From contig CAYUJZ010000006.1 of NCBI GenBank assembly GCA_964445165.1, forward strand, positions 1 through 51,318: DNA of 51,318 bases, given 5' to 3'. The translations under genes were made by a program, and so were the position numbers. Shown here in pieces: positions 52 to 34,543 of the stretch. The notes under the pieces were generated by a model. It had not been told where the DNA came from. It made no database searches and saw nothing but the letters and a program-made list of their open reading frames with translations. The DNA is from an uncultured Methanosarcinales archaeon (GTDB lineage Archaea; Nanobdellota; Nanobdellia; Woesearchaeales; JASKKU01). Position 1 is the stretch's first letter. Every line of letters begins with the position of its first letter.

Positions 52-125
52 TGAGCCCGCGGGGATTTGAACCCCGGACCACTTGATTATCAGTCAAGCA
101 CTCTACCAGTCTAAGCTACGGGCTC
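52..125 (-). tRNA. tRNA-Ile (GAT)
   Basis: Reverse complement GAGCCCG...CGGGCTCA folds as a cloverleaf; anticodon arm CTTGA-CTGATAA-TCAAG; T loop TTCAAAT; TTTATAAA box 24 nt upstream; no encoded CCA. Confidence 0.95.
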
Positions 126-28760: not shown

Positions 28761-31520
28761 CTATTCAAACCTGACCTCAACGCCCTGCAGGTTAGCCTGC
28801 TCCCGGAATTCGCTTGCAATCATTTTCTTGATAATCTCTGAAACGACTATTACCAGGGAGCTTACCCCGATGATTATTGCCCATTCCTTTCCAGACAGCG
28901 GCACAGTCCCAAGAACGCTTTGCAGGAACCCATTGTAAACAGCAAGCACAGTCAAGCCTATTGACGTGCCGATAGCGATGAACAGGTGCTTATTCCTGAA
29001 TAGGTTTTTGTTGAAAATGGATGTGTGAAGCGACTTTGCATTGAACGCATGGAACATCTCAACCATTATAATTCCAACAAAAGCCAGTGTTCTTGCTTTG
29101 TCAATCGATGGGTCAGGCCCTCTCATTTCCCAAAGGAACAGGGAGAAAGTCCCAAGAAACAAAATAGGAACCAGCACAAGAATCTTCTCAACAAGGTAAA
29201 ATGACAGTATCTTCTCTTTAGGGTTCCTTGGCTTTTGCCTCATAACTTTAGGGTGCATCGGCTCAACGCTTAACGCAAAGGCAGGAAGCGAGCTTGTAAC
29301 AAGGTTGACATACAGCACCATTAGCGCAGTTAGCGGCGAAGCCAGGCCGATAAGAACAGTAATCACAAGGAGCGAAACCTCAGTCATATTGCCAGCAAGA
29401 AGGTAGTAAAGGAACCTTCTTATGTTGCTGTATATCCTTCTTCCTTCCTTCACAGCGTTTACAATCGTGCTGAAATTGTCATCAGCAAGCACCATATTTG
29501 AGGATTCCCTAGCAACATCTGTGCCATTCTTGCCCATGCTTATCCCAATGTCTGCCTGCTTTAGCGCAGGCGCATCGTTGACGCCATCTCCCGTCATTGC
29601 AGCAATCTCCCCCTTTCTCTGAAGAGAATTCACAATTCTCAGCTTGTGCTCAGGAGTGCTTCTTGCAAATATTGCAACCCTGTCAATCACCTCATCAAGT
29701 TCTTCATCTGTCATCTTGTCAACTTCGGTGCCTTCAATAATAAGGTCATGCTCTTCATCAATAATACCTATGCTCTTGCCGATGCTCTCAGCAGTCTTCT
29801 TGTGGTCGCCAGTAACCATAATTACTCGGATCCCAGCCTGGCGGCATTCTTTTACAGATTCTATCACTTCGTGCCTTATCGGATCCTTTATAGCAACCAT
29901 TCCCTCAAAAACATAATTTTTTTCCAGCCCCTTATTTGGGTTCTTTTTGTCAAAAGAGCCCATCACTTTTGTCCCAAAGCCCAGAACCCTGTAGCTCCTG
30001 TCAGTAAACCTTGCAACATTCTTATGAATACCATTTAGCTCTTCAGGTGTAAGCTTCTTCACTTTTCCACTTGAGGTTCTGATATAGGCGCATTTTGAAA
30101 GCACCTTCTCAACAGCTCCTTTCAGGAAAGAAACAGGCCTTGCCCCAACAGTATTAACGGTTATCATAAACTTTTTGGAGGGATCAAATGGAATTTCGTA
30201 AAGCCTCTGGAAATCCTCTTTTATAATCTCATCATCAAGCCCGGCACTTTTTGCTAGCGCAATCAGGGCGCCTTCAGTAGGCTCGCCATTAAGGCTCCAC
30301 TCTCCATCTTCCATTTCAATTCTTGCATTATTGCAGAGTATGCTTGCCCTGAAAAGCTGCTCAGCGCACTTTATGTTTTTAGGGCTAATCCTCTTGTTTC
30401 CTTTCATAAACTCAGAATTGGGCTCATAGCCTTTGCCTTTAACTTTGATAATTGTTCCGTCCGCCAGTGCAATCCTTTCAACAACCATCTTGTTCTGGGT
30501 AAGCGTGCCGGTTTTGTCTGTGCAGATTACTGTTGTTGTTCCAAGCGTTTCAACAGAATTCAGGTCTTTTACAATGGCGTTATGCTTTGCCATAGTCTTA
30601 ACGCCCTGTGATAATGTAACAGTTAGTGCCAGAGGCAGGCTTTCAGGGATTCCGGAAACAGCAATCACGCTTATCAGCAGCAGGCTGCCTGCCACAGGCT
30701 CTCCCCTTGCAAGGAGGTAGAAAAAGAAGAGTATGGCAATCATTATTACGGCAATCGATATCCTTTTGCTTACATGGTTCATCTGCCTGTGCAGCGGGCT
30801 TGGTTTTTCCTTGATGGTTGCAAGCTGCTTTGATATTTTTCCCAGCTCAGAGCCCAGCCCAACTTCAACAACCACTCCGATTCCTGAGCCGTTTGCGACG
30901 CTCGTCCCGCTGAAGGCCATGTTGTCCTGGTCCGCCACGGGAATATCCTGCTTTCTCAGTTTTGCTGTTTTCTTGTATTTCTGTACAGACTCGCCGGTTA
31001 GGATAGACTCATCAATAGATAATGTGCTTGTTTCGATTATCCTCAGGTCAGCAGGAACAATCATGCCTCTTTTAAGAGAAACAATGTCTCCCCTGACCAG
31101 CTGAGTGGCATCAATTTCCTTCCATTTTCCAGAGCGCAGGACATAAACTTTCTTTGCAGTAAGCTTTGACAGGGCCTGGATAGATTTCATAGCCCTGAAC
31201 TCCTGGAAAAAGCCGAGGAAGCCAGTAAAAAGAATAATTATCATGATAGCAACAAACTCAACAAAGTGGTCAGAGAATATGGAAATAATAGCAGCAGCTA
31301 GCAGCACATATATCAACAGGTTATTGAAGTTTCGTGCAAGAATCTTTAAGAATTTCAGCTTATCTTCTGTTGCAAGTGTGTTCAGCCCGTCCCTTTTTAT
31401 CCTCTCTTCTGCTTCAGCATCGGTGAGCCCTTCCCTTGAGGTATTTAGGTCTTTTAACACTTCCTGCTCGCTTCTCAAGTACCAGTACTTGTAAAGCTCT
31501 TCCTTCGCGCTGCCCTGCAT
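28761..31520 (-). CDS. P-type cation-transporting ATPase (type IIA, Ca2+-like)
   Basis: DESILTGES, IPESLP, DKTGTLT, KGAVE, MVTGD, TGDGVNDAPAL; GAGGAG SD before ATG 31520. Confidence 0.93.
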   Translation of the reverse strand: MQGSAKEELYKYWYLRSEQEVLKDLNTSREGLTDAEAEERIKRDGLNTLATEDKLKFLKILARNFNNLLIYVLLAAAIISIFSDHFVEFVAIMIIILFTGFLGFFQEFRAMKSIQALSKLTAKKVYVLRSGKWKEIDATQLVRGDIVSLKRGMIVPADLRIIETSTLSIDESILTGESVQKYKKTAKLRKQDIPVADQDNMAFSGTSVANGSGIGVVVEVGLGSELGKISKQLATIKEKPSPLHRQMNHVSKRISIAVIMIAILFFFYLLARGEPVAGSLLLISVIAVSGIPESLPLALTVTLSQGVKTMAKHNAIVKDLNSVETLGTTTVICTDKTGTLTQNKMVVERIALADGTIIKVKGKGYEPNSEFMKGNKRISPKNIKCAEQLFRASILCNNARIEMEDGEWSLNGEPTEGALIALAKSAGLDDEIIKEDFQRLYEIPFDPSKKFMITVNTVGARPVSFLKGAVEKVLSKCAYIRTSSGKVKKLTPEELNGIHKNVARFTDRSYRVLGFGTKVMGSFDKKNPNKGLEKNYVFEGMVAIKDPIRHEVIESVKECRQAGIRVIMVTGDHKKTAESIGKSIGIIDEEHDLIIEGTEVDKMTDEELDEVIDRVAIFARSTPEHKLRIVNSLQRKGEIAAMTGDGVNDAPALKQADIGISMGKNGTDVARESSNMVLADDNFSTIVNAVKEGRRIYSNIRRFLYYLLAGNMTEVSLLVITVLIGLASPLTALMVLYVNLVTSSLPAFALSVEPMHPKVMRQKPRNPKEKILSFYLVEKILVLVPILFLGTFSLFLWEMRGPDPSIDKARTLAFVGIIMVEMFHAFNAKSLHTSIFNKNLFRNKHLFIAIGTSIGLTVLAVYNGFLQSVLGTVPLSGKEWAIIIGVSSLVIVVSEIIKKMIASEFREQANLQGVEVRFE

Positions 31521-31659
31521 ACACTCCTCTTTAGCCCGTTTTGTTTTTAAAGGTTTTGTGTTATCCTTGAGTGATTTAGAAGCCTTTTTTATTGTGAAAA
31601 CGCACATTGCTTTTTTAAATTGATAAGATTTATAAACAAGCTTTAGTTATCCTTTTCTG

Positions 31660-31963
31660 TTAAACAGTAAGATTGTTCGGATGGGTCCTTGCACAAGGGC
31701 TTATAAACAGCCTAAATGAGTGTGAGACATCCCCGGGCAATTCAGGCCCACCACGAGAGTACTCAAAGGAGCTAACGATAAACTCAAGCTATGAGTTTGG
31801 GAGTTAGTGTTGTGGGCCCCATTGTTTTTACAAAATGGGGGGCAGGCCAAATCTCATTCATCATTTCATCAAAACATTGTATTTCAGGAAAGGATGAGTC
31901 TTAAGCATAACTTGTGCTTAGTGAGTGGCTAGTTCTCCCTCTAGAAGCAAAGAGGTGAATTAA
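31660..31963 (+). ncRNA. Candidate ~300-nt structured 5' leader or ncRNA upstream of dnaG
   Basis: TTTATAAA at 31629-31636; many hand-identified helices with G-U pairs favouring the plus strand; terminal CCUCU/AGAGG hairpin covers the SD. Confidence 0.6.
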
Positions 31964-33241
31964 ATGGGAAAAATAAGCATAGTTTCTGCAAAGTACATTA
32001 TTCATGCAGATATAAAAATTGACGGAATGGTTGATAAGCCAGATGTGATAGGAGCGGTCTTTGGCCAGACTGAAGGGCTTTTGGGCTCAGACCTGGAGCT
32101 AAGAGAGCTTCAGAGAAGCGGCAGGATTGGCAGGATTGAGGTAAACCTGGAATCAAAAGGCGGAAAGAGCAAGGGAGTGATAACAATCCCCTCTTCACTT
32201 GACAAGGCTGAAACCTGCATAGTTGCTGCAGCTTTGGAGATTATCCAGAGAATCGGACCGTGCAACGCCACAATCACAGTCAACAATATAGAAGATGTAA
32301 GAATCTCAAAGAGAAAGTATGTTGTTGAGAGAGCAAAAAACCTTCTTAAAAACCTAATGGACAAGATGATGCCAGACACCCAAGAGATAGCAGAGGAGGT
32401 TTCCTCTTCAGTCAGGGTTATGGAAATTGGCGAGTACGGCAGGGACAGGCTTCCGGCAGGCCCGGCAGTTGCAGAGTCTGATGAAGTGATTGTTGTTGAG
32501 GGCAGGGCAGATGTTATTACGCTTGTTAAGAACGGCTTTAAGAACGTTATCGCAATGAACGGCTCTTCTGTGCCAGATACAATCATTGAGCTCTCGAGGA
32601 AAAAGACGCTTACTGCATTCGTTGACGGAGATAGAGGCGGCGACCTTAACATCAAAGAGCTCTTGTCTGTGGCTGACCTGGATTTTGTTGTGAAAGCCTC
32701 GGACGGCAAAGAGGTTGAGGAGCTTACAAAGAAGGAAATCCACAAGGCTTTGAGAAGCAAGATAGCAGCAGAGCAATACAGGCTTGACCATAATATACCT
32801 GAGTTAGATGGCTCTAACGGCAAAAGTAATAACGATAAGAGGCAGCAGGATTCCCAAAAAAGCTCAAAGGGAGACGACCGGGACAGGAGAAGAAACGATA
32901 ACCGAGGGCAGCAGAGGCAGCAGCCGGCCAGCAAGCCAGCCCAGATCTCAGCAGCAGAGAAGGAGAAATTCAAGCAGCTCTCAGATGAGCTCGTAGGCAC
33001 AAAAGGCGCCTGCCTGCTTGACAGCAAGATGGAAATCCTGGCAAAGATACCGATAAACGAGCTTCAGTCAACAATTAAGGATTTAAGCACAGATATCCAT
33101 GCTGTTGTGATTGACGAAAGCATCTCAAAAGACCTCGTAAAAGCCTGCGAAAGGGCAAAGGTAAGGTATCTTGTAGGGACAGAGTCAAGCGTAAGCAACG
33201 CAAGCACGCCTATAAGAATCTTAACTTATGATGACTTGTGA
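31964..33241 (+). CDS. dnaG: Archaeal DnaG (TOPRIM; primase-like, exosome-associated in studied archaea)
   Basis: VDKPDVIGAVFGQTEGLLG, LRELQRSGRIGRI, IVVEGRADV, FVDGDRGG. Confidence 0.95.
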   Translation: MGKISIVSAKYIIHADIKIDGMVDKPDVIGAVFGQTEGLLGSDLELRELQRSGRIGRIEVNLESKGGKSKGVITIPSSLDKAETCIVAAALEIIQRIGPCNATITVNNIEDVRISKRKYVVERAKNLLKNLMDKMMPDTQEIAEEVSSSVRVMEIGEYGRDRLPAGPAVAESDEVIVVEGRADVITLVKNGFKNVIAMNGSSVPDTIIELSRKKTLTAFVDGDRGGDLNIKELLSVADLDFVVKASDGKEVEELTKKEIHKALRSKIAAEQYRLDHNIPELDGSNGKSNNDKRQQDSQKSSKGDDRDRRRNDNRGQQRQQPASKPAQISAAEKEKFKQLSDELVGTKGACLLDSKMEILAKIPINELQSTIKDLSTDIHAVVIDESISKDLVKACERAKVRYLVGTESSVSNASTPIRILTYDDL

Positions 33242-34090: not shown

Positions 34091-34168
34091 GGGGCTGTGG
34101 GGTAGCTTGGTCTAGCCTCTCTGGCTTGGGACCAGAAGACCCCGGTTCAAATCCGGGCAGCCCCACCA
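34091..34168 (+). tRNA. tRNA-Pro (TGG), CCA encoded
   Basis: GGGGCTG/CAGCCCC acceptor; TCTGG-CTTGGGA-CCAGA anticodon arm; ACCA end. Confidence 0.95.
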
Positions 34169-34184
34169 GCACTGGGTGGCTAAA

Positions 34185-34412
34185 ATGAAGAAAATATCAG
34201 GGAACACCACAAAGCGGTTCGGAGCAAGGTACGGAAGCAATATAAAGAGAGACTTCCTCAAGATAGAGCAGATGCAGAGGTCCAGGTATGACTGCCCTTA
34301 CTGCGAGGGAAAAAGCTCAGTGAAAAGAGCTTCAATGGGGATATGGGAATGCAGGAAATGCGGCAAGAGATTTACCTCAAAAGCCTATTCAGTTGAGGCG
34401 AAAAAATGGTAG
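34185..34412 (+). CDS. rpl37ae: 50S ribosomal protein L37Ae (eL43)
   Basis: RFGARYG, CPYC and GIWECRKCG zinc ribbon. Confidence 0.93.
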   Translation: MKKISGNTTKRFGARYGSNIKRDFLKIEQMQRSRYDCPYCEGKSSVKRASMGIWECRKCGKRFTSKAYSVEAKKW

Positions 34413-34543
34413 AGTACAAATGCTTTATATGCTCAAAGAGCGTACCTTTTCAGCTTGTAAAAAAGAAGGTAAGGTGCCCTTACTGTGGCAGCAAGATCCT
34501 TTACAAGCCTAGGAGAATCATCAAAAGAGTCAAGGCACGATGA
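34406..34543 (+). CDS. rpoP: RNA polymerase subunit P (Rpo12), not in ORF track
   Basis: MVEYKCFICSKSVPFQLVKKKVRCPYCGSKILYKPRRIIKRVKAR; conserved position after L37Ae. Confidence 0.93.
   Translation: MVEYKCFICSKSVPFQLVKKKVRCPYCGSKILYKPRRIIKRVKAR

Follow-up and report, generated by a model that had tools for sequence, protein, structure and literature searches.

The region between a cation ATPase gene and dnaG

The DNA analysed here, the window, is a stretch of 51,318 nucleotides (nt) that covers positions 1 to 51,318 of contig CAYUJZ010000006.1 in the assembly GCA_964445165.1 of an uncultured archaeon, which is deposited as a Methanosarcinales archaeon and placed in the Woesearchaeales by GTDB. 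Between a divergently oriented gene for a P-type cation ATPase and the gene dnaG lies a non-coding stretch (31608-31963), in which all open reading frames (ORFs) have at most 49 amino acids (aa). This stretch very probably encodes, at about 31660-31829, a two-hairpin archaeal box H/ACA guide small RNA (sRNA) with its own TATA promoter. Box H/ACA guides are small RNAs that direct pseudouridine formation in ribosomal RNA (rRNA). Behind the two hairpins, named SL1 and SL2, a third structured domain extends towards the Shine-Dalgarno (SD) sequence of dnaG (Table 1).

The initial annotation of this locus had described an approximately 300-nt, heavily structured leader ahead of dnaG, which was thought to be an uncharacterised riboswitch, an autoregulatory leader or a DnaG partner RNA. 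The strong structure is borne out, and on the plus strand only: the fold of 31640-31966 reaches -102.6 kcal/mol compared to -82.95 +/- 4.7 in 100 dinucleotide shuffles (z -4.18), none of which was as good, whereas the minus strand gave a z of only -1.39. The proposed TATA box is found in the sequence as TTTATAAA, the outer helices assigned to 31671-80/31733-42 and 31745-51/31812-18 are correct and covary in relatives, and the tandem G-A pairs are real, being elements of kink-turns (K-turns). The inner helices GUCCUU/AAGGGC, CUUAUA/UGUGAG, GCUAAC/GUUAGU and AAACUCA/UGAGUUU are without support in relatives, which favour CUUGCAC/GUGUGAG, ACUC/GAGU, AAA/UUU and GCU/AGC plus the K-turn bulges. No RNA of the signal recognition particle or of RNase P lies at the locus, in agreement with the earlier statement; the same genome has both on other contigs (C25 and C18). 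Hence, the notion of a genuine, conserved structured RNA that is tied to dnaG and has no Rfam match holds, but its core, about 150 of the 300 nt, appears to be a known kind of trans-acting guide RNA. For this core (31671-31821), a double-hairpin H/ACA guide takes the place of the riboswitch or leader that hides the SD sequence.

Table 1. Positions of the guide RNA elements, the third domain and the flanking genes in the window
Feature	Position	Strand	Remarks
P-type cation ATPase gene	28761-31607	-	divergent, left neighbour of the non-coding stretch
TATA box TTTATAAA	31629..31636	+	putative sRNA promoter
SL1, putative H/ACA hairpin	31671..31744	+	covariation; pocket match to the A loop
SL1 P1 (lower stem) GAUUGUUCGG/CCGGGCAAUU	31671-80/31733-42
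SL1 5' guide AUGGGUC	31681-87
SL1 P2 CUUGCAC/GUGUGAG	31688-94/31720-26
SL1 K-turn	AA 31695-96; bulge 31714-17; GA 31718-19
SL1 3' guide ACAUCC	31727-32
Hinge CA	31743-44		directly before SL2
SL2, putative H/ACA hairpin	31745..31821	+	covariation; model R1; pocket match to helix 69
SL2 P1 GGCCCAC/GUGGGCC	31745-51/31812-18
SL2 5' guide CACGAGAGU	31752-60
SL2 P2 ACUC-AAA / UUU-(GG)-GAGU	31761-67/31796-98 + 31801-04		GG bulge 31799-800
SL2 K-turn	GGA 31768-70; bulge UAU 31790-92; GAG 31793-95
SL2 C-stem GCU/AGC
SL2 apex			mini-hairpin
SL2 3' guide UAGUGUU	31805-11
SL2 box CCA	31819-21		ACA in most relatives
Local hairpin with U5 run	31819..31842	+	U5 run at 31825-31829
Third domain	31837..31939	+	conserved stem; candidate dnaG leader element
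Basal stem (AGAACAAG/CUUGUUCU in the family)	31837-49 with 31926-39
Pyrimidine/A repeats CUCAUUCAUCAUUUCAUCA	31853-71		UCAY-type, inside the stem
Interior of the third domain			two internal hairpins
Conserved 3'-strand motif, here CUAGUUCU	31929-36
Shine-Dalgarno sequence AGAGGUGA of dnaG	31951-58	+
Start codon of dnaG	31964-66	+
dnaG	31964-33241	+	425-aa archaeal DnaG-type Toprim protein; Pfam matches Toprim_4, Toprim_2 and Toprim

A putative box H/ACA guide and its predicted rRNA targets

Both hairpins consist of a lower stem (P1), a pocket and a K-turned upper stem (P2), and each has its (A)CA box at a distance of some 15 nt from the pocket. As read from the sequence and the alignment, the upper stems comprise 9-10 nt up to tandem G.A pairs with a 3-nt bulge, the 10th P2 nucleotide of SL2 being the distal G.A pair, and the box is situated 14-16 nt past the pocket in both cases. 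This anatomy fits the rules for H/ACA RNAs as given in PMC7075261, i.e. a distal G:A pair 9-10 from the base of P2 and the n+15 rule, and thereby supports the assignment. The K-turn of the SL1 family consensus reads GA / 3-nt bulge / GA at 9 nt, with GA in most relatives, and most rows of the SL1 alignment have an ACA hinge between the hairpins. One nt past P1 of SL2, the box is ACA in 78 of the 101 distinct loci, xCA in 20 and AxA in three.

The pairing of both hairpins is conserved by compensatory changes. For SL2 (alignment A1, 20 sequences and 19 pairs), 89.7% of the cells are standard pairs compared to at most 49.4% with the partner slid, and 10 of the pairs show changes on both sides; for SL1 (alignment A2, 50 sequences and 21 pairs, the long row L109 left out), the corresponding values are 86.9% and at most 46.5%, with 20 of the 21 pairs changed on both sides. 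The covariation score was reached by none of 500 shuffles in either alignment.

A DNA search of 41 related genomes gave matches in 26, mostly on 31745-31820 and with 75-92% identity across different families. The covariance model R1, which was built from SL2 and scores the window itself with 97.2 bits, finds the hairpin as a single copy in 133 of the 151 genomes searched in the order (including the unpublished G135), and among the high-quality ones in 107 of 116; one genome (G050) has two matches. In a phylum-wide sample, 141 of 151 genomes have a match; among them are 27 of the 34 genomes that belong to other orders of the class. Named records with the core motif are metagenome-assembled genomes (MAGs) of Woesearchaeota, Nanoarchaeia or Nanoarchaeota, some of them labelled 'Methanosarcinales', beside a few chance matches in bacteria.

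The 5' hairpin is less constant than SL2. An SL1 of the A-loop type (AUGGGUCC, at most one mismatch) occurs in 51 of the 101 loci, while the remaining loci carry another 5' hairpin or lack one, the TATA box then standing immediately ahead of SL2. Variation of this modular kind is expected for guide RNAs. A second type of 5' hairpin ahead of SL2 (L012, L010/L099 and others) carries the pocket AAGAAGCCYGAWUU; for the L012 pocket (AGCCUGA / GACGAAA), the rRNA target scores were at most 12 and none was convincing, and this hairpin may guide the modification of a tRNA or another RNA.

Regarding expression as a separate unit, 93 of 99 loci have a TATA-like motif no more than 130 nt ahead of the RNA, and in loci with the A-loop type of SL1 it starts at a median of 35 nt ahead of the first stem. 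In the window, the sRNA transcript is predicted to start near 31660. The local hairpin with its U5 run might possibly act as a partial terminator and yield an sRNA of about 170 nt. This is not a family feature, because only 9 of 99 loci, the window included, have a run of at least five T within 40 nt past SL2, and 28 have one of at least four T.

Targets were sought in four relatives with complete large subunit (LSU) rRNA by a simple pairing score at every U (about 1000 per genome) and by 300 shuffled guides; for the small subunit, three relatives had complete rRNA, the partial 16S of G026 being excluded from the scan. The pocket of SL1 matches the A loop (helix 92) of 23S rRNA at GGGUGU-UC-ACCCAUU, with 6 + 6-7 base pairs around the unpaired UC. 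The consensus guide scores 25 and the window guide 24, the next-best U has at most 16, and none of the shuffled guides reached the A-loop score. We take the predicted target to be the equivalent of E. coli U2555, or U2554 in variants. Even in G021, which is without this SL1 and differs in the sequence of the A-loop stem, the A-loop site ranks first with 20-21. The pocket of SL2 matches helix 69 at AACUA-UA-ACUCUC with a score of 20, which is the top LSU site in all four relatives, the next site scoring at most 15. The predicted target would be the equivalent of E. coli U1917; in an alternative register (GUUA with UAAC) the U1915 equivalent would be presented. In Haloferax both of these helix-69 uridines are modified from one pocket (PMC7075261). 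The helix-69 assignment gains weight because the guide strands are nearly invariant and H/ACA hairpins of Haloferax and Pyrococcus make helix-69 pseudouridines.

Among the proteins of the guide RNA particle, the genome encodes Cbf5 (332 aa, with the domains DKCLD, TruB_N, TruB_C_2 and PUA) and Nop10. As a working model, Cbf5, Nop10 and probably Gar1 would bind each hairpin together with L7Ae, which would occupy the K-turn; the internal loop of each hairpin would then pair with 23S rRNA, and Cbf5 would convert one unpaired U to pseudouridine, SL1 acting on the A loop and SL2 on helix 69.

Several observations weigh against this assignment. Both boxes of the window depart from ACA, being (U)CA in the hinge (31742-44) and CCA after SL2 (31819-21), although their distance is right, and the non-bulged strand of the SL1 K-turn is AA instead of GA. 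The pairing of SL2 with helix 69 is short (4 + 6 base pairs) and its score was equalled by 12 of the 300 shuffled guides, hence the complementarity of SL2 alone is only modestly significant. The MAG of the window has no assembled 16S or 23S rRNA, and both targets are therefore those of relatives. The Pfam model of Gar1 had no match in the genome; however, the same control misses Sulfolobus, too. For L7Ae, TIGR03677 did not match in the 41-contig assembly, and tblastn with the proteins of two relatives gave nothing below E 1.8. An Rfam scan, which the initial annotation had suggested, was made with 4227 families and gave no match, neither for the region at the gathering threshold nor for 31450-32100 at E <= 10. 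The archaeal H/ACA models of Rfam are lineage-specific; the locus corresponds to a known family in kind, box H/ACA, and not through any Rfam model. Finally, dnaG is linked to the RNA almost without exception, which is unusual for a guide RNA gene and is not accounted for by a guide function.

In regard to L7Ae, the assembly (G000) is 98.5% complete by markers, while 16S, 23S and the L7Ae gene were not found in it and relatives have them; L7Ae is present in 17 of 20 relatives, the same genus included. As with the rRNA operon, the absence of L7Ae is in our view a gap in the assembly. The sole match of Pfam PF01248, a 90-aa ORF of the L7Ae/L30e family (L205, G000:C7, 1486-1758), was considered as L7Ae and rejected, because the gene order points to L30e: it sits between an RNA polymerase subunit gene and a KH-domain gene. 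By the typical archaeal gene order, this ORF is presumably L30e, and its neighbours would be RNA polymerase A''-like and NusA-like KH genes.

Apart from this region, the window contains a DUF3800-X RNA (RF02984) at 15555-15624 on the minus strand, scoring 62.4 bits where the gathering score is 38.2, and four tRNA genes recognised by Rfam, 52-125 (-), 11799-11871 (+), 34091-34165 (+) and 50932-51006 (-). The third of these stands directly before two small zinc-ribbon-like ORFs (34176-34412 and 34406-34543), which we presume to resemble ribosomal protein L37Ae and RNA polymerase subunit P.

Linkage to dnaG and the third domain

With the first 200 aa of the dnaG product as query, dnaG was detected on the same strand, 88-565 nt past SL2, in 99 of the 101 distinct loci; at the other two, less than 260 nt of sequence remain. 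In other orders of the class, dnaG stands behind the RNA in 19 of 20 fetched loci. The exception, L193 (G181:C1:339193-340769), belongs to a 0.49-Mb single-contig genome and has the two hairpins, the ACA and a T-run, with neither dnaG nor a third domain. The spacers between SL2 and dnaG are AT-rich and contain TATA-like matches in 44 of 99 loci with no positional preference; an internal dnaG promoter is not conserved, though one may still be present. Because of the same-strand linkage, the lack of a TATA motif with a preferred position in the spacers and the small number of T5+ runs after SL2, dnaG most likely owes its expression to transcripts that start at the sRNA promoter and read through. 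In such a transcript, the sRNA would be freed by termination or processing and then be shielded by its proteins, whereas the third domain would become the 5' leader of the dnaG mRNA, serving there as a processing or stability stem or as a regulatory site.

Only this 3' third of the region (31837-31939) stays as a candidate leader element of dnaG. The motif CTTGTTCT is found in 62 of the 99 spacers and pairs with an upstream AGAACAAG-like strand with a median z of -3.71 (below -2 in 56 of 65 loci). The resulting stem has 10-12 base pairs: its 3' strand CUUGUUCU is invariant, the 5' strand stays paired through A-to-G changes, and flanking pairs covary. A UUAGGU-like motif occurs inside the stem in many loci, and the third domain is not confined to this order but recurs in others of the class. 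Elsewhere in the genome, the motif gave 58 loose matches, 22 of them with a possible upstream partner, and none of these 22 was in a similar context.

An SD sequence followed by the AUG of a short ORF is present in 41 of 99 spacers, and the ORF often opens with MFI, MII or MFT. At several loci (L004-L006, L034, L042, L079, L093, L132 and others), an SD-like run and then AUCAUGUUCAUC open ORFs of 12-32 aa, 70-170 nt before dnaG. The conservation of the peptides ends after 3-4 residues. Conserved nucleotides reach upstream of the AUG, hence the start of these ORFs may be an RNA motif rather than part of a peptide. Where the closest relatives (L004-L006) have this AUG, the window has AUU. A different 12-aa ORF is located at 31894-31932 of the window.

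As the most economical guess, the third domain would act in the dnaG leader, either through a stem for processing or stability or as a site of regulation. That it is an element independent of the guide RNA, namely (a) a processing or stability stem which sets where the dnaG mRNA begins, (b) the target site of an RNA-binding protein, possibly DnaG, or (c) a leader-peptide frame, has in our view an even chance of being correct. The conserved 3' strand together with the maintained pairing of the 5' strand, the recurring UCAY-type repeats, the frequent short ORFs with their similar starts and the loss of the domain at the one locus without dnaG (L193) are in line with such an element. Some results count against it, however. 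RNase III was tried as an enzyme processing the long stem and was not found in any of the 21 genomes searched; the brief conservation of the peptides and the AUU of the window speak against a leader peptide. An antisense guide was likewise considered and rejected: in four genomes, the third domain has only scattered exact complements of 8-11 nt to rRNA, at a different place in each, and thus no consistent complementarity. A more far-reaching but tentative proposal, which we regard as possible and somewhat less probable than the independent element, is that guide and dnaG mRNA share a single transcript in the Nanoarchaeia that were searched; the third domain of this transcript would be a new cis element that sets the shares of free guide and translatable dnaG mRNA.

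The H/ACA-shaped hairpins themselves could also act mainly in cis, with Cbf5 and L7Ae bound to the nascent leader tuning dnaG and thereby coupling the capacity for ribosome modification to DnaG, while guiding would be secondary. The class-wide synteny and the many loci without a terminator after SL2 would suit this scenario; nevertheless, it is very improbable, since guiding in trans suffices to explain the strict conservation of the guides that match rRNA, and the locus without dnaG keeps the RNA.

The cis-acting leader of the initial annotation included a last hairpin, CCUCU/AGAGG, that buries the SD sequence. This hairpin forms in the model of the window, with a pairing probability of 0.82 for the SD, but it does not stand out from shuffles (z -1.65), and in relatives the duplex of the SD with upstream sequence has a median z of -0.16 and falls below -2 at 5 of 98 loci (median SD pairing probability 0.56). 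A riboswitch or translational leader with SD sequestration was rejected on this ground, as no conserved platform pairs with the SD. Despite the constant place of dnaG, the mostly paired SD of the window and the lack of a conserved internal promoter, we consider it very improbable that the whole of the about 300 nt is a riboswitch-like or protein-responsive dnaG leader, because the anti-SD pairing is neither above shuffles nor conserved, the conserved unpaired nucleotides are exactly both halves of the rRNA-complementary H/ACA pockets, L193 retains both hairpins, the ACA and the T-run without dnaG behind them, and an SL1 that is present, absent or re-pocketed by locus resembles modular guides and not one aptamer.

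Relation to known guide RNAs and implications

As an H/ACA guide, the RNA is of an ordinary known kind that databases miss. A partial search of the literature found no description of it in Woesearchaeota, nor of its linkage to dnaG. The closest described RNA, compared by description and not by sequence, comes from Nanoarchaeum equitans, whose only box H/ACA sRNA has 159 nt (Randau 2012, Genome Biol 13:R63; PMC3491384). This sRNA also has two extended hairpins with identical K-turn bulges, an ACA-only hinge without a full H box and its own promoter (box-A). By the names of the records with the core motif (Nanoarchaeota, Nanoarchaeia or Woesearchaeota), N. equitans belongs to the same broad lineage. 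However, its sRNA gene, which ends at a T-stretch, is flanked by a hypothetical gene and the gene for tyrosyl-tRNA synthetase, whereas the RNA described here is followed by the conserved third domain and then by dnaG.

Helix 69 is a known target of archaeal H/ACA RNAs. The 3' hairpin of sR-h45 of Haloferax volcanii guides Psi1940 and Psi1942, the equivalents of E. coli 1915 and 1917 (Majumder et al. 2020, PMC7075261). Like the RNA described here, sR-h45 has K-turns in both hairpins. It differs in having a genuine H box and a linker of 56 nt; Psi2605 is the target of its 5' hairpin, in contrast to the A-loop match of the SL1 pocket, and its pairing with helix 69 leaves UNUN unpaired while the best register here leaves UN. 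The consulted sections of that paper do not describe a linkage to dnaG. In Pyrococcus, motif 3 of Pab40 (P. abyssi) and Pf7 (P. furiosus) acts in vitro at Psi2016 in stem-loop 69 of 23S rRNA (Muller et al. 2008, PMC2377435). It is thus an H/ACA hairpin for helix 69 like SL2, a likeness by description and not by sequence, but part of a three-hairpin RNA from another phylum.

Eukaryotes also possess H/ACA guides on the same functional rRNA loops, which differ in being H-box/ACA snoRNAs without K-turns. In yeast, snR10 guides the A-loop Psi2923. For helix 69, snR191/U19 are named as guides in PMC7075261. An archaeal A-loop guide was not found in the portion of the literature on archaeal H/ACA RNAs that was covered by our partial search.

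The locus adds a missing annotation, i.e. a near-universal single-copy H/ACA guide, undetected by Rfam, across a large group of archaea that are tiny and uncultured. The prediction is that RNA-guided pseudouridylation persists in these reduced genomes at helix 69 and in the A loop, both of them functional centres of the ribosome, and the A-loop pocket of about half of the loci predicts an archaeal A-loop pseudouridine. Only the fixed position ahead of dnaG and the third domain go beyond known biology, and they offer a lead for the co-transcription and processing of sRNA and mRNA in DPANN archaea. DnaG in archaea is tied to RNA decay and priming. If guide and dnaG mRNA indeed form one transcript that is partitioned by the third domain, ribosome modification would be linked to DnaG in these organisms.

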